Under the pieces are notes generated by a model. The model did no database searches. It saw nothing but the letters and a program-made list of their open reading frames with translations, and was not told the DNA's origin. From Candidatus Iainarchaeum sp. (GTDB lineage Archaea; Iainarchaeota; Iainarchaeia; Iainarchaeales; 0-14-0-20-34-12), in assembly GCA_030649345.1 (NCBI GenBank), contig JAUSKK010000008.1, positions 21,533 through 53,532 of the forward strand: 32,000 nucleotides of DNA, in the 5' to 3' direction. Positions 1,010 through 27,358 of this stretch are shown here, piece after piece (position 1 is the first letter of the stretch; every line of letters starts with the position of its first letter). A program made the translations under genes and the position numbers.

Positions 1010-1609
1010 GTGAATTATTTGGCAATTGAAAATGTGCATCCCAGTGACTTGATTTCAGGTCTAGCAAATGATTTTGAAAAAAATTTAAAAATGCAAAAAC
1101 CAAATTTTGCAGACTACGTAAAAACCGGTGTTCATCGAGAACGAGCACCCACTCAAGAAAATTGGTATTATTTACGCTTGGGTTCTTTGTTGTATAGAAT
1201 TTACAAAGACGGCCCAGTTGGAGTTCAAAGTTTACGTTCCTATTACGGCGGCCGGCAAGCACGCGGTGTCAGACCTCACAGACACAGAAAAGCCAGCGGA
1301 AAAGTTATTCGTTTTTGTTTACAAGAATTAGAAAAAGTAGGATTTATTGAAAAGTTTGGAAAAAAAGGAAGAAAGCTCAGCAAAAAAGGCCAATCTTTTT
1401 TGTACCAGAAAGCCAAACAATTAACTGCACAAATGCCTGAAATTTTGGCAGCTAAAGAAGAAGCTAAAATTGCCCGTGTTAAAAAATTGGAAACAATTTC
1501 AAAACAAGCACCTAAAGAAGATGCTTCTAAACAATTTGCCAGAAAAGGAAAAAAAGACAAAAAAGATGAAAGTTCTGATTCCGAAAAAGGATCCAAGAAC
1601 AAAAAATAA
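1010..1609 (+). CDS. rps19e: 30S ribosomal protein S19e with a ~55 aa K/E/S-rich C-terminal tail
   Basis: Motifs: KTGVHRERAPTQENWYYLRLGSLLYRIYKDGPVGVQSLRSYYGG...RGVRPHRHRKASGKVIRFCLQELEKVGF. GTG start at 1010 overlaps AGGTGA; an in-frame TTG at 1019 is an alternative start. Confidence 0.9.
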   Translation: MNYLAIENVHPSDLISGLANDFEKNLKMQKPNFADYVKTGVHRERAPTQENWYYLRLGSLLYRIYKDGPVGVQSLRSYYGGRQARGVRPHRHRKASGKVIRFCLQELEKVGFIEKFGKKGRKLSKKGQSFLYQKAKQLTAQMPEILAAKEEAKIARVKKLETISKQAPKEDASKQFARKGKKDKKDESSDSEKGSKNKK

Positions 1610-1610
1610 G

Positions 1611-1639
1611 TTATCAGATGTAGTTTAAGGTTCTGATAA
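1611..1639 (+). promoter_or_regulatory. Hairpin TTATCAGA-N13-TCTGATAA in the rps19e / PDCD5-like spacer, with the AAGG ribosome-binding-like motif in its loop
   Basis: Perfect 8-bp inverted repeat, 1611-1618 and 1632-1639, ending 1 nt before the ATG at 1641. Confidence 0.3.
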
Positions 1640-1640
1640 T

Positions 1641-1967
1641 ATGGATGAAAATTTAGATTCATTAAGGCAGCAGCGCATGCAGCATTTGAAAAAAAATGCA
1701 GAAGACAAAAAAAGCCAGCAAGAGCAAGCAATGCAAGCTCAAATGCAAGTGAATGCTTTAATGATTCAGTATCTAGAGCCGGCAGCCAAAGAACGGTTGA
1801 ACAATGTAAAATTAATTAATTCAGAATTGTACGGAAAAGTTGTTCAAACTGTTTTGTATTTGGTGAAAAGCCAAAAATTGAATCGAAAAATAACGGATAT
1901 TGAATTAAAAAAATTATTAACTTTGGCCACAGGTCAAAAACGAGAAATTAAAATTGTAAGAAAATAA
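1641..1967 (+). CDS. PDCD5/TFAR19-type dsDNA-binding protein (archaeal MTH1615-like)
   Basis: Motif ...IQYLEPAAKERLNNVKLINSELYGKVVQTVLYLVKSQKLNRKITDIELKKLL..., and the conserved position between rps19e and rpl39e. Confidence 0.8.
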   Translation: MDENLDSLRQQRMQHLKKNAEDKKSQQEQAMQAQMQVNALMIQYLEPAAKERLNNVKLINSELYGKVVQTVLYLVKSQKLNRKITDIELKKLLTLATGQKREIKIVRK

Positions 1968-2048
1968 ATCAGTAGTGCTGAATGAAATGAAGCACTACGT
2001 TCGACCAACCGGAACCCCGGTTGAGAAGTTAAAATTGTAAGAAAATAA
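1941..2048 (+). repeat. 27-nt direct repeat (1941-1967 and 2022-2048, 25/27 identical) duplicating the last 8 codons + TAA of the PDCD5-like gene around a 54-nt two-hairpin insert
   Basis: CGAGAAATTAAAATTGTAAGAAAATAA versus TGAGAAGTTAAAATTGTAAGAAAATAA. Insert hairpins are GTAGTGC(1972-1978)/GCACTAC(1992-1998) and CAACCGG(2006-2012)-AACC-CCGGTTG(2017-2023). Confidence 0.85.
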
Positions 2049-2068
2049 AAAAATATTGAGGAATCATA

Positions 2069-2356
2069 ATGGCAAGACATAAAACACAAGAATTCAAACA
2101 ATTTGCAATTGCAAAACGCAGAAGTGTCGGAAGTACTTTAAGTGCTGCTCCAGTTTGGACTTTTCAGAAAGCAAATCGCAGATTGTTTTCAAAGACCAGC
2201 AAGCGTACTTGGAAACAAATAGGTATTGGGAAGTTATTTGACGAACAACAACATACTAAAGAAACCCAAGCCATCAAGCATATGAAGCGTTCTTTTTTAG
2301 TCAAAAAAAGAGCACGATTAAATAAGAAAATAAAATCAAAAAAGAAAACAAATTAA
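2069..2356 (+). CDS. rpl39e: 50S ribosomal protein L39e, divergent, with a ~45 aa basic C-terminal extension
   Basis: MARHK...AKRR...APVW...KANRR...SKRTWK fits the L39e pattern MAR.K..AK...PVW..K.NRR...KR.W. Conserved operon position. Confidence 0.7.
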   Translation: MARHKTQEFKQFAIAKRRSVGSTLSAAPVWTFQKANRRLFSKTSKRTWKQIGIGKLFDEQQHTKETQAIKHMKRSFLVKKRARLNKKIKSKKKTN

Positions 2357-2374
2357 AATATGGGATGACTATTT

Positions 2375-2815
2375 ATGGTTGAAATTCGAGAATTTACAGT
2401 GGATTTAAAGAAAAGATACAAACAACCCAAGCCTGGCAGAGCCAATAAAAGTATCAATGCCATTCGCTTAAAGGTAAGCAAAGCTTTGCATGTTCCTTTA
2501 GATACTGTGAAATTATCCAATACTGTAAACGAAGCTATTTGGGAACACGGGCGAACCAAGCCTCCGCATAGAATTAAATTAACTTTAAAACAAGACACCG
2601 ATCGAGTGGACGTATTTTTATTCAGTGAATTTGAAGAAGTTAAAAAATTAGTTTCTGAAGAAAAAAAGAAAAAAGAATCCAAGAAAACTGAACCTAAAAA
2701 AGAAAAAACAGAAAAAGTTGAACCTGAAACAGAAGCAGGTGTTGCTGAAGCAGTAAAACAAAAACAGAAAAAAGAAATTGAAGAAGCTGCTCAAAGCATG
2801 GATCATAAACATTAA
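2375..2815 (+). CDS. rpl31e: 50S ribosomal protein L31e with a ~55 aa K/E-rich C-terminal tail
   Basis: EFTVDLKKRYKQPKPGRANKSINAIRLKVSKALHV..VKLSNTVNEAIWEHGRTKPPHRIKL, plus synteny. Confidence 0.85.
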   Translation: MVEIREFTVDLKKRYKQPKPGRANKSINAIRLKVSKALHVPLDTVKLSNTVNEAIWEHGRTKPPHRIKLTLKQDTDRVDVFLFSEFEEVKKLVSEEKKKKESKKTEPKKEKTEKVEPETEAGVAEAVKQKQKKEIEEAAQSMDHKH

Positions 2816-2833
2816 TGAATTCTTTTGAATTCA
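2816..2833 (+). terminator. Perfect hairpin TGAATTC-TTTT-GAATTCA immediately after the rpl31e stop
   Basis: 7-bp stem at 2816-2822 / 2827-2833. Its role in termination is inferred only. Confidence 0.35.
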
Positions 2834-2848
2834 TAATTAGGTAATCCA

Positions 2849-3508
2849 ATGAAATTTACTAAACAATATTTGAATTCCAGCCCCTACATTGGCGTATTTG
2901 CAGTTACCAGTGAAACGATTTCTTTATTTCCTGCTTTTATTACAAAAAAACAAAAACTTTATTTTCAAGACATTTTGGGAACAGAAATTATTCAAGGAAC
3001 TTTAGCAGGATCGCATTTATTGGGTGTGTTTGCTGTTGGATCGCAAAACAAGTTTTTAGTTTCCAATCTAATTTCAGACAAAGAATTGGATTTTTATAAA
3101 AATCAAGGATTGAAATTAGAAGTCTTAAGTGATAATTTGGCAGTTGGAAATTTAATTGCTTTAAATGATTTTGGAGCAGTTTGTAGTCCTATTTTTTCCA
3201 AAGAAGACATCGCAAAGATTAAATCTTTTTTGGGCACAGAAGTTGTTACTTCTTTGGTTGGAAATCATGATCTAACCGGGGCCAGTTGCAAGGCAACCAA
3301 TGTTGGATTTATTGTAAGTCCTATGGTTACAGAACAAGAATTTAGTGTTTTGCAGAAAACATTAAAGGTAGACGGAATGCGAACCACAGCCAATTACGGT
3401 GATAGATATGTAGGCAATGGATTAATTGCCAATTCAAAAGGCGCAGTGATTGGTGTTCCAACCACAACCCATGAAATGATTCGCATAGATGAAGCATTCA
3501 GAAAATAG
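2849..3508 (+). CDS. eif6: Translation initiation factor 6 (aIF6)
   Basis: 219 aa, NSSPYIGVFAVTSE..., repeated pentein-like segments, conserved position after rpl31e. Confidence 0.9.
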   Translation: MKFTKQYLNSSPYIGVFAVTSETISLFPAFITKKQKLYFQDILGTEIIQGTLAGSHLLGVFAVGSQNKFLVSNLISDKELDFYKNQGLKLEVLSDNLAVGNLIALNDFGAVCSPIFSKEDIAKIKSFLGTEVVTSLVGNHDLTGASCKATNVGFIVSPMVTEQEFSVLQKTLKVDGMRTTANYGDRYVGNGLIANSKGAVIGVPTTTHEMIRIDEAFRK

Positions 3509-5369: not shown

Positions 5370-6003
5370 CATTCAATCCGCGTTCTACGGCTGCATGAAT
5401 TAGAGTCATATGATGGGTAATTAAATCCCGGTCTAATTGCATGCGTACTTGTTCATTGAGCCAATGATTAAATACTGCAATATTGGCTTGACAAATGTCT
5501 TTTACATACGGAAAAATACTATCCCATGCTTCATTTACTTTATCTTTTCGTAAAGCTTGAGTGTGAATTTCATCTAAATCTCTTAAAAAATATTCTGCTT
5601 CTTTTTGCACTTTAAGTACTCCATCATGTTTTGCAATTTTAATGGCTTGTTGTACTACGCTTCTTACGTCGGCAAAACTTTTTCGTTCTCCGCTTAACAC
5701 TGCTATATTTAGGTCTTGCATTTGAAGATGCCGTGCAATTTCATTTCGTTGGCTTTTTTTAACATGGAGTCCTGCAACTAATTTTCCTAAAACTTTGGCT
5801 TTTACTAAATCATGAATAACATCTGCTGGAACTTTTCCTTTCAATTGTTTGCTTAAACGCAAAGCTTCGCGTACAAATTCTGTTGTAGTAAATTTTCGGT
5901 TAACGATTTCAGATTTTCTTCTCCGCTCATTTAATCGAACCCGCAATCCGGGTTTTCTCAAGCGTTTAATTGTTCGAACCATTGCTGGTTTTCGCATGCT
6001 CAT
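5362..6003 (-). CDS. Basic-N-terminus helical protein, paralog family member A (unknown function)
   Basis: MSMRKPAMVRTIKRLRKPGLRVRLNERRRK..., 213 aa. TATA-like CATATAAA upstream, no SD. Overlaps the ftsY 3' end by 8 nt (convergent). Confidence 0.7.
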   Translation of the reverse strand: MSMRKPAMVRTIKRLRKPGLRVRLNERRRKSEIVNRKFTTTEFVREALRLSKQLKGKVPADVIHDLVKAKVLGKLVAGLHVKKSQRNEIARHLQMQDLNIAVLSGERKSFADVRSVVQQAIKIAKHDGVLKVQKEAEYFLRDLDEIHTQALRKDKVNEAWDSIFPYVKDICQANIAVFNHWLNEQVRMQLDRDLITHHMTLIHAAVERGLNAR

Positions 6004-6085
6004 ATCATTGTTTTAGTTGACGTTGTTTATATGACTTTTCTACTAATTAGGCATTGTTTTAAGTTTAGTTTAAATATTATTTTTT

Positions 6086-7045
6086 ATGCAAAAACCAATT
6101 CGCAAACCTTCTAAAGGAAAAATGGCTCCAAGATTGGAACGAAAAGCTCGTGGAGCTTATACGCCAACTCAACCTCGTTTATTGGAAAATCGCTGGGCTG
6201 TAAATATTGGGACTGAAAGTAAGCCTAGGCTGAAAAGCAGATTGGATAGTCTTTTACGAAATCCAAAAAAAAGAATTGCTGAACGAAAATACTTTGCTGC
6301 TCGGTTGGATGCAGACCTTGAAGTTTTACATGCTTTTAATTCATCGGGTGAACGCAGAAAACCTTTGAATGAAACACTGAAAAGATTAACTGAAGTTTTT
6401 ACTGCTGAAGCAAGTCCGCATGCAGATGTGTATAGTGTTGGTAGAGAAATTCTTAATATTAAATTTAATGCATGGCTTCCACGCATTCTTAATTTAGCCG
6501 ATACTGTTATGGTTCACGGAACTCGAGAAGAACAAGCAAGTCAGTCTGCATTATTTGATGCTGTAATCAAATATATTTCCAGTCCTCCTGGAAAAGAACT
6601 TGAATTGAGTCATAGTAAGTCTATGCGAATGAAGAAAAAAAGAGAGGAAAGACCTGAAGTTTATGCAAAAGCAAAACAACTCAGAAAAGAAACTAAAAAA
6701 GAACAAAAACGCAGAAACTCTGAAAGGAAAGTGCGTTCAATTGTTTTTTTGAAGAAAACTTTTTTTGATTCACTTCAAGGCGGATTAAGAGAACTTGCTA
6801 AAGCACAAGAAAGACTAAAAGACAAAGCGTCTCCAATGAATCCTAATCTTACTAGGTTATATCATTGGCTGCTTCGAAGTCAAATTGATCTTATTTTTGA
6901 AAGAATTGACGAATTTAAAGCTACTCCAGTATTTCGGGGTATTTCAGTAGACGAACGCAGGCAAATTTCCGATACTGTGCATGCCTGCAATCTGGTTTTA
7001 CTAGAGTACTCTTTGAAATTGATTCGCAAGCCTCCAACAAAATAA
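6086..7045 (+). CDS. Basic-N-terminus helical protein, tentative paralog family member B (unknown function)
   Basis: MQKPIRKPSKGKMAPRLERKARG..., 319 aa, with a central K/R/E-rich segment. TTTAAATATT box about 10 nt upstream of the ATG. Divergent from member A. Confidence 0.65.
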   Translation: MQKPIRKPSKGKMAPRLERKARGAYTPTQPRLLENRWAVNIGTESKPRLKSRLDSLLRNPKKRIAERKYFAARLDADLEVLHAFNSSGERRKPLNETLKRLTEVFTAEASPHADVYSVGREILNIKFNAWLPRILNLADTVMVHGTREEQASQSALFDAVIKYISSPPGKELELSHSKSMRMKKKREERPEVYAKAKQLRKETKKEQKRRNSERKVRSIVFLKKTFFDSLQGGLRELAKAQERLKDKASPMNPNLTRLYHWLLRSQIDLIFERIDEFKATPVFRGISVDERRQISDTVHACNLVLLEYSLKLIRKPPTK

Positions 7046-11811: not shown

Positions 11812-12462
11812 ATGGAACGTCCTAAAGTAAAGCCTGTAGCTAAATTTAAAACAAGCGTTTTTGGTTCTGGAAAAGTTAAAAGTAAAAAAGTTCAAGATTG
11901 GCTGCGTTGGCATAAGCATGCTTTATTGAATGCCGATCGATTTATTCAAGCGAAAGATTTTGCCCGCAGAGCTGTTTTGAATTCTTTGCGTGCTTATGCA
12001 GATACTTTGAAAATAAGTCCTCAAACCAAAGAGGCTTTACTGTTGGCGCAAGATACTCGTTTGGATTTAATGAATGTACTTTCAGGTTGTGTGACTCGCA
12101 AAGAATTGAATGGACGAAAGGGAGCGTTTTTTGATAGTCAACCTTTTGTTGGTTTTTTGAAAAAATATTGTGCTTTTTTGGATTCCTGGCATGATGTATT
12201 TCCAGCATCTCGATTGAAAAATATTAAAGATCATGCAATTGCTCAGTTAGAAGATGCCCAGGATTCAATTCGTACAGAAGGCATTACTCGTTTTTTAATT
12301 CCTAAAGAAGAACTGGAAGTCATGCAGCATAATATAGATACTGCTTCAGCTATTTTTTTAGGTTTTAAAGCTAAACGTTTTTTGAAGATTCGGGCAGCTA
12401 TTGTTCATGCAGTTGAACAACATGCACAGCTTCTGAAAAAGCCTTTAAAAGAAAGAAGTTAA
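11812..12462 (+). CDS. Basic-N-terminus helical protein, paralog family member D (unknown function)
   Basis: MERPKVKPVAKFKTSVFGSGKVKSKK... Contains RRAVLNSLRAYADTLKISPQTKEALLLAQDTRLDLMNV, which aligns to members F and E. Confidence 0.7.
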   Translation: MERPKVKPVAKFKTSVFGSGKVKSKKVQDWLRWHKHALLNADRFIQAKDFARRAVLNSLRAYADTLKISPQTKEALLLAQDTRLDLMNVLSGCVTRKELNGRKGAFFDSQPFVGFLKKYCAFLDSWHDVFPASRLKNIKDHAIAQLEDAQDSIRTEGITRFLIPKEELEVMQHNIDTASAIFLGFKAKRFLKIRAAIVHAVEQHAQLLKKPLKERS

Positions 12463-12499
12463 CCAACTCATTTTTATTTAATAAAAACGTATTCTTTTA

Positions 12500-13159
12500 A
12501 TGCAGCGCCCCAAAAAACCAATTCCTGGTGGTTGGAGTTTTCGTACTGTTCGAGAAGGAACTCACAGTAAAGTTGGCCGTGCCAGAGTTGAAAAACAACC
12601 AGTGTTTTCTAAACCAAAAATTAATTGGACAGAGCGTGCTTTTGTGATTGGAGCATCTCCAAATGTTTTAAAGTCTCCGCGAATGCGTCAGCATGTTTTG
12701 GTGCGTACTTTGCGTGAGTTTTTGCATTCGTTTTCGGATCTTTCTGAGCCTCGAAGAAACGCAATTTTAGATTTAGAAAAAGTTAGATTGGATATCCAAG
12801 AAGTTCAAGAAAAATATTCTGATCGTAAAGCAATGCCTGCCAACGAGTATACGCGTTTTTTGGTTTCTTTAAGTGCAGTATTTCGTACCGGTAGTCAATG
12901 TCTTCAAGATGAATATGTACGTAATGCTGCTGAACAAATGGAAAAAAATGCAACCACTGAACGAACACGAGTGAATACTCATCAATATCGTGCATTGACT
13001 GTTACACGTGATTTTTTTAAACCCAAATTAGATACTTTAGATGAAGTTGTTCGTAGGCTGGTTGGAAATGAAGTTCAAGCCAAAGAATTGATTGGTGTTC
13101 GTGAACAAATTTTGGAAGCCGTTGATACTTTGCAAGTCAGTATAGCTGAACGAAACTAA
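12500..13159 (+). CDS. Basic-N-terminus helical protein, paralog family member E (unknown function)
   Basis: MQRPKKPIPGGWSFRTVREG... Contains RQHVLVRTLREFLHSFSDLSEPRRNAILDLEKVRLDIQEV. TTTTATTTAATAAAA box upstream. Confidence 0.7.
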   Translation: MQRPKKPIPGGWSFRTVREGTHSKVGRARVEKQPVFSKPKINWTERAFVIGASPNVLKSPRMRQHVLVRTLREFLHSFSDLSEPRRNAILDLEKVRLDIQEVQEKYSDRKAMPANEYTRFLVSLSAVFRTGSQCLQDEYVRNAAEQMEKNATTERTRVNTHQYRALTVTRDFFKPKLDTLDEVVRRLVGNEVQAKELIGVREQILEAVDTLQVSIAERN

Positions 13160-13256: not shown

Positions 13257-13511
13257 ATGGACTTTGTTACACTTTTAGGTTTTGCAGCTGCTATTCTAAC
13301 TACTTTAGCGTTTGTTCCGCAATTGATTCAAATCATGAAAACTAAATCAACCAAAGATATTTCGCTTTTAACTTTTTCTGGTTTTACGGTCGGAGTATTT
13401 TTGTGGTTAGTGTACGGAATTTTAACCAATGCTTTGCCAGTCATTGCAGCCAATATTGTTACTCTTATTTTAGCTATTTTGATTTTGTTTTATAAAATCA
13501 AATACAAATAG
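13257..13511 (+). CDS. SemiSWEET / PQ-loop family small transporter
   Basis: 84 aa, three TM helices, LAFVPQLIQIMKTKSTKDISL PQ motif. Confidence 0.8.
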   Translation: MDFVTLLGFAAAILTTLAFVPQLIQIMKTKSTKDISLLTFSGFTVGVFLWLVYGILTNALPVIAANIVTLILAILILFYKIKYK

Positions 13512-13598: not shown

Positions 13599-14981
13599 CT
13601 AATAAGATTTTTTTTTGTGCAAATTAAGATGTTCTGTGCGTTCAATTTCTTTCAAATTACTCGGATCGTTGTTGTATTTGTTACCATCAATGTGATGTAT
13701 ATCGTAACCCACTTTTGGCCAACGTCCATGCGCATTTTTCCAGATCCATCTATGGACTGAAGTCTTCTTATCATAATCTTTTAGATCCAATCCCTCTTTA
13801 TAAAAATAATAATAGCCGCCCCAATAAGGATTTACAATAACCAATCTGTTACCTACAAGTTCATACGGAAAGGGTTTGTTCACCCGTTCCCATTCACTAC
13901 TCATATAATTTGCAAGTTTGTATGTTTTAATTTCAAATTTAGCTTTCAGATCGTCAAGCTTTTTTAATTCACTTTCTTTCTTATTATTTTTTTCCCTTAA
14001 AATACTAATTTCATCATCCATTTTTTCAATTTCATACTTTTGTTTTTGTATCTCTGCAGATATTAGTTTTTGTTTTTCAATTAGATTTTTTCTTTTACTA
14101 TATTCAATTGAATGATAACCAATTATCGAAATAACTATTATTATCACTAAGGCAATTATCAAGAATTGCAAGTTATCAAAAAAAATTTTATTATCTTTGT
14201 CCATTTGTAATTTCGTTCTCGCCTCAAGTATTGTTTGAGTTTCTATGCACAAGCCATTGGCATCAATAGCGCCATAAATACACTCTTGTTCACTGCAAAT
14301 TGGTTTGAAACCAATCTCAACACTCTTTTTTTTCACACATAAATTATTGTTGCATGAAACTTCGTCAGTTTTGCAAGTAAATCCTGGAAAAAACTCATTT
14401 TTATTATTGCAAATATTTTCAATACAAAATCCCCCTCCACACTCAGTGCCAATTGTGCAGGTGGCTCCATCATTTAGGCAATTTTTATCTAAGCAAGTTT
14501 TGCAGTTGTCTGTGGTGATTATTTCTTTTTCAGTTTTAAGATATGTAAAATCGTTTTCTAAAATAGTGTATTCTATTGATTCTTGGTTTATTCGAGGGGA
14601 GCTGCCAATACTTTCCCATTCATCTGTTACAACAGATCCGCCTGCTGGAACGTCAAAAACATGACCTGCCTTGTTGCCAACCCGGTTATTCCAATAATAT
14701 GAAATGTCTAATTTTATCGGAGTAATGTAACTATTGTAAATTGTGAATCCAGTGTGGTCGTTTCTAATATAAAAGTCACCAAAACGTATGGGCGTTTTGG
14801 TTATATAGTTATCAGTTATATTTTTGACGAAAATAACTTCATTGTTTTCCTTATTAAATAGTTTTTGTGCATATATTTCTCTTTGTGTTTGGGTAGTGTA
14901 TTGGCAAGCCAATGTCTGCGCTGAAACTATCGGCAAAGATAAAATAACAATCAGTGCTAAAAAAAGAATTTTGATTCGCAT
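13599..14981 (-). CDS. Single-pass membrane protein: signal peptide, Cys-rich ectodomain, TM, coiled coil, C-terminal HNH nuclease domain
   Basis: MRIKILFLALIVILSLPIVSAQ signal. 13 Cys between aa 159-245. TM FLIIALVIIIVISIIGYH (aa 272-289, nt 14115-14168), then KRK. Heptad-like K/E segment. HRWIWKNAHGRWPKVGYDIHHIDGNKYNNDPSNLKEIERTEHLNLH (aa 410-455, nt 13617-13754) matches the HNH_3-type pattern. Confidence 0.75.
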   Translation of the reverse strand: MRIKILFLALIVILSLPIVSAQTLACQYTTQTQREIYAQKLFNKENNEVIFVKNITDNYITKTPIRFGDFYIRNDHTGFTIYNSYITPIKLDISYYWNNRVGNKAGHVFDVPAGGSVVTDEWESIGSSPRINQESIEYTILENDFTYLKTEKEIITTDNCKTCLDKNCLNDGATCTIGTECGGGFCIENICNNKNEFFPGFTCKTDEVSCNNNLCVKKKSVEIGFKPICSEQECIYGAIDANGLCIETQTILEARTKLQMDKDNKIFFDNLQFLIIALVIIIVISIIGYHSIEYSKRKNLIEKQKLISAEIQKQKYEIEKMDDEISILREKNNKKESELKKLDDLKAKFEIKTYKLANYMSSEWERVNKPFPYELVGNRLVIVNPYWGGYYYFYKEGLDLKDYDKKTSVHRWIWKNAHGRWPKVGYDIHHIDGNKYNNDPSNLKEIERTEHLNLHKKKSY

Positions 14982-15037
14982 TTCATAATTTATGCAAAAC
15001 TTATTATAATATCTTTCACACCTTCAAAAAAACAGAA

Positions 15038-15195
15038 TGCAGCCATCGGGATTCGAACCCGAGTCGCAACCTCTCGCCAAACGAACATAAACGTGAAGAA
15101 GCCGGTCGATCGAGCGTTAGCGAAGATCGTCCTAAAGCGTCAACCGATTTTGCGGTTGTGGAAGGGTCGCATCCTGACCACTAGACTATGGCTGC
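15038..15195 (-). tRNA. tRNA-Gly(UCC) with an 86-nt intron at the canonical 37/38 position (intron 15073-15158)
   Basis: Hand fold: GCAGCCA/TGGCTGC acceptor, GTCT..GGAT D arm, CGACC/GGTTG anticodon stem, loop CTTCCA|A, TCGGG-TTCGAAT-CCCGA T arm, discriminator A. 37 + 86 + 35 nt. Confidence 0.85.
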
Positions 15196-18082: not shown

Positions 18083-19162
18083 TCATTTTTGTGCTGATTC
18101 ATTTATGACTTTTTGTAATTTTTCTAAAAACTCGCTTGTGTCTACAAAATAGTTTGGATACGCTTTTTGCAGATCAGAAATAGTATCTACTCCAACAAGA
18201 ACAACATCATATTCTTTTCGATCTCTCGTTCTTTTTTCAGCTTCAGCGTAATCTTCAATTGCTTTTTTTTCCTGCTCTTTTGTATATAATCTATACGTCA
18301 ATTTTCCAGCTAGAATATCTAGCTCCAATAGGAAATATTGTGCTTTTCTAGTGCCTTTAAGTGTTTCAGTAAAATGTGTAATTGTGGCAGCCCATGTTTT
18401 CATTTTGCTGATTACTTTTAGTTCTTCTTCTTTTTTCTTAATTTCCAAGTATAATTCTTTTTTATCTGAAATGGTACCCGGAACTGTTGGGCAATTTTCT
18501 ATTTTTGCAAAGGCAGAACTTACAAGTCTAAAAAAATTCATCCATTCTGCATTTCCTTCATTGGATTTAATTGCCTGTCTAGTAAAAAAATCCACTGTTT
18601 CAATAGCGGTTGCCCACAAATGCTGCAATTTTGACCTTAACTGAATCTCAACCAGCAAACCATTATAATCTGTTTTTCCTTTTTTGTCACTAAAATATTT
18701 ATAAATAATATGAATACTTCGGTAACCGTCTTGCTTTGGATGGATGATATAATCTTTTACTCCAACTCTTTTGTGTTTTAAATCTCCCTTTATATAATAA
18801 TCTTGATAAAGTTTTCTTACTTGCGGTACTGTTTCTAAAACAGCTCTGCATCCGCCAATGTCCTGCATTTGACTTAGTTTCATTGTTGGAGGCAGTTCAT
18901 TGTAACTTCTTTTTAATTTTTTAATAATCGCAGGAATTCGCTTTAACCGCTGTGCAGTTAATGCGTTTTTATTAACTTGAATTGCCTTTCTCTTTAACCT
19001 GATCTTGAATACATGCATTGGATAACTGTGAATGGCCCTGAAATTATCCAAAATTTCAATTGCGTTATTTTTTTCATCTTCTGAGGCAGAATCACTGCTT
19101 AAAATACTGCCGGCATGATCGATCTTGGATTTTGATACGTGAATTGGTTTTGTCCATTGCAT
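18083..19162 (-). CDS. RelA/SpoT-homolog nucleotide pyrophosphokinase (small alarmone synthetase / toxSAS-like) with a ~150 aa C-terminal extension
   Basis: Synthetase motifs QRLKRIPAIIKKLKR, QDIGGCRAVL, DYIIHPKQDGYRSIHIIY, VEIQLRSKLQHLWATAIE. No hydrolase HD motif. TATAAATATAG box directly upstream of the ATG. Confidence 0.8.
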   Translation of the reverse strand: MQWTKPIHVSKSKIDHAGSILSSDSASEDEKNNAIEILDNFRAIHSYPMHVFKIRLKRKAIQVNKNALTAQRLKRIPAIIKKLKRSYNELPPTMKLSQMQDIGGCRAVLETVPQVRKLYQDYYIKGDLKHKRVGVKDYIIHPKQDGYRSIHIIYKYFSDKKGKTDYNGLLVEIQLRSKLQHLWATAIETVDFFTRQAIKSNEGNAEWMNFFRLVSSAFAKIENCPTVPGTISDKKELYLEIKKKEEELKVISKMKTWAATITHFTETLKGTRKAQYFLLELDILAGKLTYRLYTKEQEKKAIEDYAEAEKRTRDRKEYDVVLVGVDTISDLQKAYPNYFVDTSEFLEKLQKVINESAQK

Positions 19163-26350: not shown

Positions 26351-27358
26351 TTAGATTGCAGTTTTTGCAATTGTGGCTTTTTGAGAAATGCAGGTGTGTT
26401 CTAATGGCATGAAACGACCTTGCCAAGGTCGAAGTCCGGGTCCGATTCCCGGCTCCTGCAAATACTTCTCAAAATTAATTTCTGCGTAATGAATGTCTTT
26501 GTGTCTTGGTACAATTCCTGTTTCTTTGTAAACTTGATATTTGTATAGGTGCTTTGGGTTATTGGGTTTTATTTTTTGAAAGAATTTGTCAATTTCGTTT
26601 CTGTCTAGAATCCAAATTTGTTCTTTTCCAATTTTTGCGTTAAATCCTAAATCTAAAAACATATTCCAAACTTCTTTCAAAAACACTGGATCGTGTGAGG
26701 TTATTTCAATTTGCGCGCTGTGTGTATGATGTCTGTGAAACCCACCGTCTGTGTCAAATAGTCCTCGCAGAAATGCTTTTTTGTATTCAGCTTGTTCATA
26801 AACTTGTTTTGGAATGTGCATTCTTCCTTTTTTATATCCAACCGGAATGCTAAATTCAAAAGCTAAATATTGATGTGCTTTTTTGGATGACAGATTGCAA
26901 TGCACTACATTTCGCTGGTATCGAAACCAAGGTTCTGCTTGAAACAAGTTTTTCATTAATTGTTTTACATGAGATTCAATATAGATTTTGTCTGAAACTA
27001 TTCCTTCTGAAATAATGATTCCATAATTCTCTGTTGTCAAACATCCATCTCCATATACTATTCCAAGGAATTCCGCTAGTTGTTCGGACATTGCAGGTAA
27101 GCTTACTTCATGTGTTCTAAACTTTAAAGTAACAAATTTTAATTTGTTTAAATTAACTGTAATATTTGCTTTTTGTATCAATTTTAATAAATTATTTTGA
27201 GGGATTTTTATAGTTCCTGAGTTATAAAACAAAACTGTTGATCGATTTACTTCTAAGAATTCAGATATTTGAGTCCAAGTCATTCCAATGTTTTGCTTTA
27301 TAGTTTGCAATAGTTTGTGTTGTTCTTCTTTTCCAATATTCAAATATGAGTTATCCAT
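26351..27358 (-). CDS. Free-standing double-motif LAGLIDADG endonuclease-like protein with an N-terminal HTH
   Basis: LAEFLGIVYGDGCL and AFLRGLFDTDGGF motifs. N-terminal TWTQISEFLEVNRSTV HTH-like segment. The last ~36 codons run antisense through the tRNA-like sequence at 26390-26460. Confidence 0.8.
   Translation of the reverse strand: MDNSYLNIGKEEQHKLLQTIKQNIGMTWTQISEFLEVNRSTVLFYNSGTIKIPQNNLLKLIQKANITVNLNKLKFVTLKFRTHEVSLPAMSEQLAEFLGIVYGDGCLTTENYGIIISEGIVSDKIYIESHVKQLMKNLFQAEPWFRYQRNVVHCNLSSKKAHQYLAFEFSIPVGYKKGRMHIPKQVYEQAEYKKAFLRGLFDTDGGFHRHHTHSAQIEITSHDPVFLKEVWNMFLDLGFNAKIGKEQIWILDRNEIDKFFQKIKPNNPKHLYKYQVYKETGIVPRHKDIHYAEINFEKYLQEPGIGPGLRPWQGRFMPLEHTCISQKATIAKTAI
26390..26460 (+). tRNA. 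tRNA-Gly(GCC)-like sequence (possibly functional, possibly degenerate)
   Basis: Hand fold: GCAGGTG/CTCCTGC acceptor (one U6-U67 mismatch), CGACC-TTGCCAA-GGTCG anticodon arm, CCGGG-TCCGATT-CCCGG T arm (C at position 55 instead of U), 3-bp D stem. Confidence 0.55.

Follow-up and report, generated by a model that had tools for sequence, protein, structure and literature searches.

A DPANN protein family with a cysteine-rich ectodomain, a single transmembrane helix and a predicted cytoplasmic HNH nuclease

Introduction

SNIPE (PD-lambda-1) of E. coli is a membrane-anchored protein that carries its C-terminal GIY-YIG nuclease in the cytoplasm and cuts phage DNA during injection (Saxton et al., Nature 2026; PMC13190303). 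SNIPE without its transmembrane (TM) helix is toxic through cleavage of host DNA, the membrane-bound form is reported to be auto-inhibited until infection, and the N-terminal region, which is the most variable part, has been proposed to be an adapter (PMC13190303). The SPEARE proteins of Nanohaloarchaeota and other DPANN archaea combine a large extracytoplasmic part, a TM helix towards the C-terminus and a restriction-enzyme-like cytoplasmic domain; their proposed role is to break down incoming DNA, either for protection or to supply nucleotides (Hamm et al. 2019; PMC6642349). In Zorya II, the HNH nickase ZorE is recruited to the membrane on infection (PMC11890865). The description of group 2 (HNH_3) in a 2017 survey of the His-Me finger superfamily contains no mention of a transmembrane architecture (PMC5714182). 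Here we analyzed a gene on the minus strand of a 32,000-nucleotide stretch of a Candidatus Iainarchaeum sp. contig (JAUSKK010000008.1; hereafter the window), which encodes a 460-aa protein with a Cys-rich ectodomain and an HNH_3 nuclease domain predicted to lie on opposite sides of the membrane. The initial annotation knew of no described system with this layout, a statement that the earlier descriptions of SNIPE (PMC13190303) and of the DPANN SPEARE proteins (PMC6642349) contradict.

The window protein and its relatives resemble SNIPE in having a single-pass anchor, an elongated helical cytoplasmic part and a small C-terminal nuclease of a homing-endonuclease superfamily, predicted here to be cytoplasmic, all encoded by one gene. 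In both, variability is greatest in the membrane-distal or N-terminal part, and discrimination of self from non-self by location would apply to the DPANN family as well. The DPANN proteins are archaeal rather than bacterial, however, and carry HNH_3 instead of GIY-YIG. They also have a cleavable signal peptide and a Cys-rich ectodomain of ~250 aa, whereas the TM helix of SNIPE is close to the N-terminus (in homologues, among the first 70 aa) and leaves just this short stretch in the periplasm. DUF4041, GIY-YIG and type III restriction domains were not among the Pfam matches of the window protein at E<=1, and PADLOC returned no match to it, the PD-Lambda-1 and Zor models included. With SPEARE the family shares a DPANN host and a predicted layout in which the bulk of the protein is outside and one TM helix is followed by a cytoplasmic nuclease-type domain. 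On the other hand, SPEARE proteins are up to 8,553 aa long (3,315-8,553 aa in the four main examples) with laminin-G, serine protease and toxin-like domains, while the window protein has 460 aa, a beta-sandwich with a Cys-rich stalk, and an HNH domain in place of a type III restriction-enzyme-like one; no shared domain was detected. In Zorya II, likewise, a component embedded in the envelope extends a long helical tail into the cytoplasm, and the HNH nickase works at the membrane during infection. Zorya is a three-gene system with a MotAB-like 5:2 ion-driven motor and a separate, soluble ZorE, whereas the DPANN protein is one polypeptide with one TM helix, and no ZorA/ZorB (MotAB-like) genes were next to the family gene in the neighborhoods examined.

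The nuclease part itself resembles I-HmuI-type HNH_3 proteins in its match to PF13392, in the VHR...HH-x-D-G-N-K-x-N-N...NL...H motif and in the preceding beta-strand region. Unlike those proteins, it has no NUMOD or helix-turn-helix modules detectable by Pfam, is not located in an intron, intein or phage, and follows a signal peptide, ectodomain and TM helix in the same polypeptide. Judged from its sequence, it is a bona fide HNH_3 domain that stands outside the contextual criteria for homing endonucleases. By domain content, the DPANN family is homologous to neither SNIPE nor SPEARE and is not a member of Zorya. The theme of a membrane-tethered nuclease, the general principle of which has already been published, here takes a non-homologous, archaeal form with an ectodomain.

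Results and Discussion

Domain order and predicted membrane topology

The signal peptide, the ectodomain with 13 Cys, the one TM helix followed by KRK and the HNH_3 domain that had been proposed for this gene were each found by hydropathy, Cys positions and Pfam, in the order listed in Table 1. The leader has a Kyte-Doolittle value of 2.59 over aa 3-21, with MR(I)K ahead of it and VSA before, and Q after, the predicted cut. The 13 Cys fall within aa 160-245, another is at position 26, and none lies past the TM helix. The cytoplasmic segment, described initially as heptad-like and rich in Lys and Glu, is indeed charged (47% of residues in aa 292-366) and helical in the AlphaFold model, but its heptad periodicity is only modest (best register above 95.5% of shuffles, p about 0.045). 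An AlphaFold run with six sequences gave one unbroken helix over aa 249-368, with a local predicted local distance difference test score (pLDDT) of 79-89. A frameshift in the reads that fused two genes had been considered as a source of the open reading frame (ORF); it was ruled out since the same domain order recurs in independent metagenomes and metagenome-assembled genomes (MAGs). The TATA-like octamer upstream of the start codon is possibly an archaeal promoter with a short or absent leader.

Table 1. Positions of the gene, its encoded segments and the upstream octamer in the window
Feature	Coordinates	Strand	Remarks and basis
Whole gene	13599..14981	minus	Predicted type I membrane protein, 460 aa; stop codon 13599-13601; ATG start (ORF list, translation)
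Signal peptide, aa 1-21 (MRIKILFLALIVILSLPIVSA)	14919..14981	minus	Hydrophobic window aa 3-21, positive N-terminus
Membrane-distal beta-sandwich, aa 22-158	14508..14918	minus	AlphaFold all-beta; conserved L-x-C-Q-Y motif at its start
Cys-rich stalk, aa 159-246, 13 Cys (CKTCLDKNCLNDGATC...ECGGGFC...)	14244..14507	minus	Cys positions, conservation
Single TM helix, aa 271-289, then HSIEYSKRK	14115..14171	minus	Hydropathy, Kyte-Doolittle 2.86
Charged helical spacer, predicted cytoplasmic, probable coiled coil, aa 290-366	13884..14114	minus	AlphaFold helix, heptad periodicity, charge
HNH_3 (I-HmuI-like) nuclease module, aa 367-460	13602..13883	minus	Pfam PF13392, PHROG HNH families
Pfam HNH_3 core, aa 409-451	13629-13757	minus	PF13392
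TATA-like octamer TTATAATA	15002..15009	minus	21-28 nt upstream of ATG, read from sequence

The HNH domain was placed inside the cell on the combined evidence of signals, composition and domain variants. A leader together with one stop-transfer helix gives an N-out/C-in protein, with or without cleavage of the leader. In 142 family proteins the mean number of Cys was 18.7 on the N-terminal side of the TM helix and 0.65 on the C-terminal side, and comparison of the 15 residues on either side of the helix showed more Lys plus Arg after it in 103 proteins, fewer in 19 and the same number in 20. In addition, three members end in a DnaJ J-domain (E 7e-12 to 5e-14), which in P0114 and P0157 lies C-terminal to a Pfam-detected HNH_3 domain; the third is P0133. 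J-domains function only with cytoplasmic Hsp70. Computation thus shows a predicted type I protein with a cytoplasmic HNH domain, and the receptor-like layout suggested for the gene holds on all of these measures. A weaker J-like match was seen in P0121, and the P0114 gene is at 1495-3192 of locus L018. The J-domain members P0114, P0133 and P0157 would recruit Hsp70 to a membrane nuclease.

The nuclease module

The HNH_3 profile (PF13392) matched aa 409-451 of the window protein with E=3.6e-14 and 52.6 bits against a cut-off of 24.8, and ten phage HNH families in PHROG matched it at E below 1e-3. A conserved strand region, PFPYE...NPYLGGY, opens the module ~40 residues ahead of this core. When 109 HNH domains of the family were aligned, H430, N442 and H451 were conserved in 100%, H429 in 99%, D432 in 93% and N437 in 88%; the beta-beta-alpha-metal catalytic residues (general-base His, structural Asn and metal ligands), which might have proved degenerate on alignment, are therefore intact. 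Searches of PDB sequences gave nothing for the whole protein or for the HNH part. A profile of the module aligned weakly (E=0.71) with I-HmuI (1u3e) over VHR...DHKDGNKDNN...NL, corresponding to I-HmuI residues 55-93, with H429-H430 opposite D74-H75 and N442 covered. H451 is opposite N96 by extrapolation only, being nine residues past the aligned NL pair in an alignment that ends at residue 93. The metal ligands of I-HmuI are reportedly Asp74 and Asn96 (structure 1U3E); the window protein would have a His/His pair (H429 and H451) instead, and H429 is a probable metal ligand. Matches to FtsL, spanin and YscO were dismissed as generic similarity of a TM helix plus coiled coil.

The triad conserved in every aligned domain, together with retention of the HNH domain in 73% of the family proteins, argues for purifying selection on HNH activity, and by these computations the nuclease appears to be the selected output domain of the family. 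The module also appears to be exchanged. Small free-standing proteins are the closest relatives of the module; one of them, P0007, has 111 aa, is 58% identical to the window module and adjoins a DNA ligase gene. At least two HNH_3 subtypes, the window type and the P0005 type, occur on the same scaffold, and with classical HNH there are at least three HNH subtypes. The P0005 type is extended at its C-terminus by ...SGIxELK... and is most closely related to free-standing HNH proteins from Patescibacteria and archaea (P0016, P0017). P0004 and P0005 share 34% identity over 436 aa but have different HNH subtypes. Pairwise identities of ectodomain and HNH domain were almost uncorrelated (Spearman 0.06; best neighbors coincided in only 3/108), a result that may be due in part to saturation at these distances. 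A few members have PD-(D/E)xK-like motif segments in place of HNH, as indicated by a weak SduA_C match (E=0.018) and motif inspection. In locus L015 the family gene is in two pieces, an ORF for the ectodomain, TM helix and coil (5512-6537) and, in another frame, the 98-aa HNH ORF P0017 (6636-6932), which is 63% identical to the HNH part of P0005; the split may reflect a frameshift, a pseudogene or a two-gene form that occurs naturally. The almost uncorrelated identities, the P0004/P0005 subtypes, the L015 split and the PD-(D/E)xK-like replacements together point to exchange of the C-terminal module. Small free-standing HNH ORFs were also observed just upstream of the family gene in L019 (168-425) and L021 (4421-4645), and may be cassettes for such an exchange.

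The ectodomain

An AlphaFold model of the ectodomain made from a 150-sequence alignment had a pLDDT of 91.4 and a predicted TM-score (pTM) of 0.65, and consisted of an all-beta domain at about aa 23-160 followed by a Cys-rich region with short strands. Foldseek found no match to this model in PDB or BFVD at E<=0.001. The top PDB hits were weak and were generic beta-sandwiches (Ig, PDE6D and FnIII-like) with TM-scores below 0.25, and these searches of PDB and BFVD allowed no ligand or function to be inferred. On the model, the fold looks new. The AlphaFold run with six sequences was poor (pLDDT 60), and the fold search made from it was meaningless.

Some 88-100% of 151 family proteins keep the Cys skeleton as well as a C-Q-Y motif, which lies at the predicted N-terminus of the mature protein; within the L-x-C-Q-Y motif, C26 was conserved in 94% and Y28 in 95%. 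We considered whether this Cys might mark a lipoprotein and rejected the idea, as by inspection its contexts (A-L-D-C, T-L-A-C and G-L-S-C) do not fit a lipobox, with Asp at -1 and Leu at -2. Mean pairwise identity was lowest in the beta-sandwich (17.5%), intermediate in the HNH domain (28.5%) and highest in the stalk (40%). Two members, at L010 5944-7461 and L012 5929-7872, have two tandem Cys-rich stalks, positions 158-240 of the ectodomain hidden Markov model being matched twice.

Size and distribution of the family

A word-indexed search returned only five relatives and understated the size of the family. Four of them had the full architecture at 27-38% identity, and the fifth, a Woesearchaeota protein, was without HNH. 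An exhaustive HMMER search with an ectodomain-only profile remedied this and found 254 clusters at E<=1e-3 and 206 at E<=1e-10, each cluster being a representative at 50% identity. Scans of genomes and metagenomes with degenerate patterns, which are narrow, gave only 6 and 3 loci, respectively. Among the 151 proteins that we examined in detail, nearly all had an N-terminal leader and one TM helix directly after the ectodomain, and an HNH domain followed the TM helix in 110. The domain order of the window protein, which we had been advised to look for in other archaea, is thus widespread in the family. The HNH domain was HNH_3-type in 108 of the 110 proteins and classical HNH with paired CxxC motifs in the other two, one of which (P0132) was above the Pfam PF01844 threshold.

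The members with source names come from MAGs of Woesearchaeota, Nanoarchaeia, Iainarchaeum or simply "archaeon", and the family appears confined to archaeal MAGs, the named ones being DPANN lineages. One member was found in a MAG labeled Chloroflexi (L010, JAFCCG010000004.1), on a contig with diphthamide synthase and purine-synthesis genes; because of the diphthamide synthase, it is probably an archaeal contig assigned in error to a bacterial MAG. The IMG/VR viral contigs searched contained no family member. Pfam, NCBIfam and PADLOC have no model for the family, and the ectodomain is not covered by any model in Pfam or NCBIfam; full-text literature searches found no description of the family. 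With at least 254 clusters, a confidently modeled ectodomain without a structural relative and a swapped HNH module, this new family could be added to Pfam, NCBIfam and PADLOC.

A possible entry-site nuclease

The reading that we favor, with a probability of about 0.45, is that the window protein is a SNIPE-like nuclease at the inner face of the membrane, where it would cut viral genomes or other foreign DNA as they cross, either in defense or to process imported DNA. The membrane tether would hold the nuclease off the cell's own chromosome, a logic that has been shown experimentally for SNIPE. The variable ectodomain would be an adapter that places the protein at, or recognizes, an entry site such as a virus, a receptor or a host-contact apparatus, and the helical spacer would probably bring two HNH nickase domains together for cleavage of both strands. 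The ectodomain may switch the nuclease on by outside-in gating or only localize the HNH domain, and a constitutive tether, as in SNIPE, would explain the architecture equally well as signal gating. SNIPE is, by analogy, the strongest precedent for this reading, and ZorE and SPEARE are further ones. We counted the fastest evolution in the membrane-distal domain, as in the N-terminal adapter of SNIPE, in favor of a conflict system.

All-vs-all BLAST of 11 neighborhoods of family genes revealed no conserved partner gene beyond a sporadic ribbon-helix-helix (RHH) gene and one prepilin-peptidase pair, and therefore the family gene appears to be a self-contained unit in housekeeping or accessory surroundings. 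The small RHH gene overlaps the start of the family gene by 4 nt in L007 (1097-1390) and L008 (800-1114); the two are homologous and 35% identical, with an RHH_1 match of 25.6 bits. A homologous gene lies two genes upstream in L019 (2-181), where the C-terminal YINLR...ARKE motif recurs, and an RHH-like but different ORF overlaps the family-gene start in L021 (4745-4954). A type II toxin-antitoxin-like pair of RHH regulator and nuclease would have such a gene directly upstream and translationally coupled; the upstream RHH gene is absent from the window, L001, L005, L009 and others. Some neighborhoods contain an ORF for ParE, PemK, HsdM or Bro-N or one with a Fic motif. The single-gene unit, these neighbors and the sporadic RHH gene have the flavor of a conflict system and favor a role in defense.

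Several points weigh against such a role. The surroundings of the HNH gene in the window are housekeeping (genes for Tmk, PTH2, SRP54 and FtsY) and lack an island signature. HNH was not seen in 41 of the 151 family proteins, one of which (P0006) is complete; many of the 41 are short and end in the spacer, and are therefore probably truncated by contig ends. No defense-system model matched the window protein, and relatives gave only PADLOC hits below threshold on the TM helix and coil. These weak hits to LmuB, RmuC and PD-Lambda-1 (E=0.074 for PD-Lambda-1 in P0002) were rejected as compositional. No DNA-binding domain equivalent to DUF4041 of SNIPE was detected. The topology is predicted from hydropathy, composition and domain logic, and function is entirely inferred for every member of the family. 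Moreover, DPANN cells are so small that a tether alone might not spare the chromosome, in which case extra autoinhibition may be needed.

DPANN archaea depend on cell-cell contact with their hosts and, to our knowledge, lack most known defense systems. If the entry-site reading is true, they have an independent, non-homologous version of a recently described bacterial strategy in which foreign DNA is told by its location through a tethered nuclease. A compact surface-to-nuclease protein of 460 aa would offer a tractable route to how DPANN archaea handle viral and host DNA, and its single-chain layout could possibly be adapted as a scaffold for membrane-localized nucleases.

Alternative explanations

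The first alternative, which we consider rather unlikely, is that the protein serves DNA import or nucleotide salvage: the ectodomain would contact the host or a pilus or pore, and the cytoplasmic HNH domain would process host DNA as it enters. DPANN archaea rely on their hosts for nucleotides. The same role was hypothesized for the same layout in the DPANN SPEARE proteins (PMC6642349), and the apparent limitation of the family to archaeal, and where named DPANN, MAGs agrees with it. The surroundings of the window gene are those of a housekeeping region rather than a defense island, and include a thymidylate kinase (Tmk) gene as well as genes for an NTPase (DUF84) and a prepilin peptidase at <= 4 kb; a prepilin peptidase gene is also immediately downstream of the family gene in L008, and a faint Tmk-like gene is near P0005 in L001. 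However, conservation of neighbors is minimal, only the peptidase pair of the window and L008 scoring (E=2.6e-5), genes for a transporter or pore component are not linked to the family gene, and some other loci carry toxin-antitoxin or restriction-modification genes. The swapping of HNH subtypes and the fast-evolving distal domain also fit an arms race, as the entry-site reading would have it, better than housekeeping import.

We regard as distinctly improbable the proposal that the protein is an outside-in gated receptor nuclease, a prokaryotic counterpart of receptor kinases, that acts in abortive infection or in a response to host contact. Binding of a virus, host or environmental ligand would shift the coiled-coil register or the oligomeric state, for example by dimerization, and so turn the HNH domain on. 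If this were true, an extracellular event would be coupled directly to DNA cleavage in a single polypeptide. The receptor-like topology with a well-folded, conserved ectodomain (pLDDT 91) and the modeled helix that continues unbroken from the juxtamembrane segment, by way of the TM helix, to the cytoplasmic part are consistent with gating. An activation step is to be expected if the auto-inhibition of SNIPE until infection (PMC13190303) is a guide, and the RHH gene upstream in some loci suggests a potentially toxic, tightly controlled product. On the other hand, the distance from the TM helix to the catalytic His ranged from 66 to 336 aa in the 72 members where it was measurable, which is hard to square with a precise allosteric relay; a lone TM helix relays conformational signals poorly without oligomerization; and the fold searches of PDB and BFVD found no recognizable ligand-binding fold.

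Finally, a surface adhesin with a parasitic or vestigial HNH domain from an accidental homing-endonuclease fusion, or a secreted or polymorphic, colicin-like toxin against competitors, is very hard to sustain, since the features that such an origin would share, namely an HNH_3 domain typical of mobile homing endonucleases (PMC5714182), close free-standing relatives of the module, the free HNH ORFs upstream in L019 and L021, and C-terminal module swapping that resembles polymorphic toxins (PMC3482391), are set against a triad that is invariant down to about 28% identity in a domain that most members keep, a C-terminus that a toxin would need outside and that the signal peptide, stop-transfer helix, Cys asymmetry and J-domains put inside, the lack of a conserved downstream gene, as for immunity, in the 11 neighborhoods, and the lack of family members on the IMG/VR viral contigs.

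Genomic context of the window gene

The window is a piece of core archaeal chromosome with a GC content of 34%, encoding FtsY, SRP54, a Toprim protein, NurA, thymidylate kinase, PTH2, a GTPase and a prepilin peptidase. The thymidylate kinase gene is 284 nt upstream of the HNH gene on the opposite strand, and only a tRNA gene lies between them. This tRNA gene (15038-15195, minus strand) is on the same strand as the HNH gene and 57 nt upstream of it; it was found with Rfam (48.9 bits, E=1.3e-9), has an intron of ~88 nt at the anticodon loop and was missed by ARAGORN. Its anticodon loop, CUUCCA, suggests tRNA-Gly(UCC). An integrated element at the tRNA gene was considered and rejected, since the tRNA 3' end is not repeated, the GC content shows no anomaly and an integrase is lacking. 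On the other side, 88 nt from the stop codon of the HNH gene, a convergent gene on the plus strand (13257-13511) encodes an 84-aa membrane protein with a single PQ-loop (SemiSWEET-like). Tandem paralogy of the two genes at 11812-13159 was not supported.

Two further genes of the window were noted. A 335-aa LAGLIDADG_3 ORF (26351-27358, minus strand; E=1.2e-11) overlaps a tRNA-Gly(GCC) called by ARAGORN at 26389-26461 on the plus strand, so that either the 3' end of the ORF or the tRNA call is doubtful and one of them needs checking. A 359-aa RelA/SpoT nucleotidyltransferase protein (18083-19162, minus strand; E=2e-16) is alarmone-synthetase-like and is encoded here in a DPANN-type genome.

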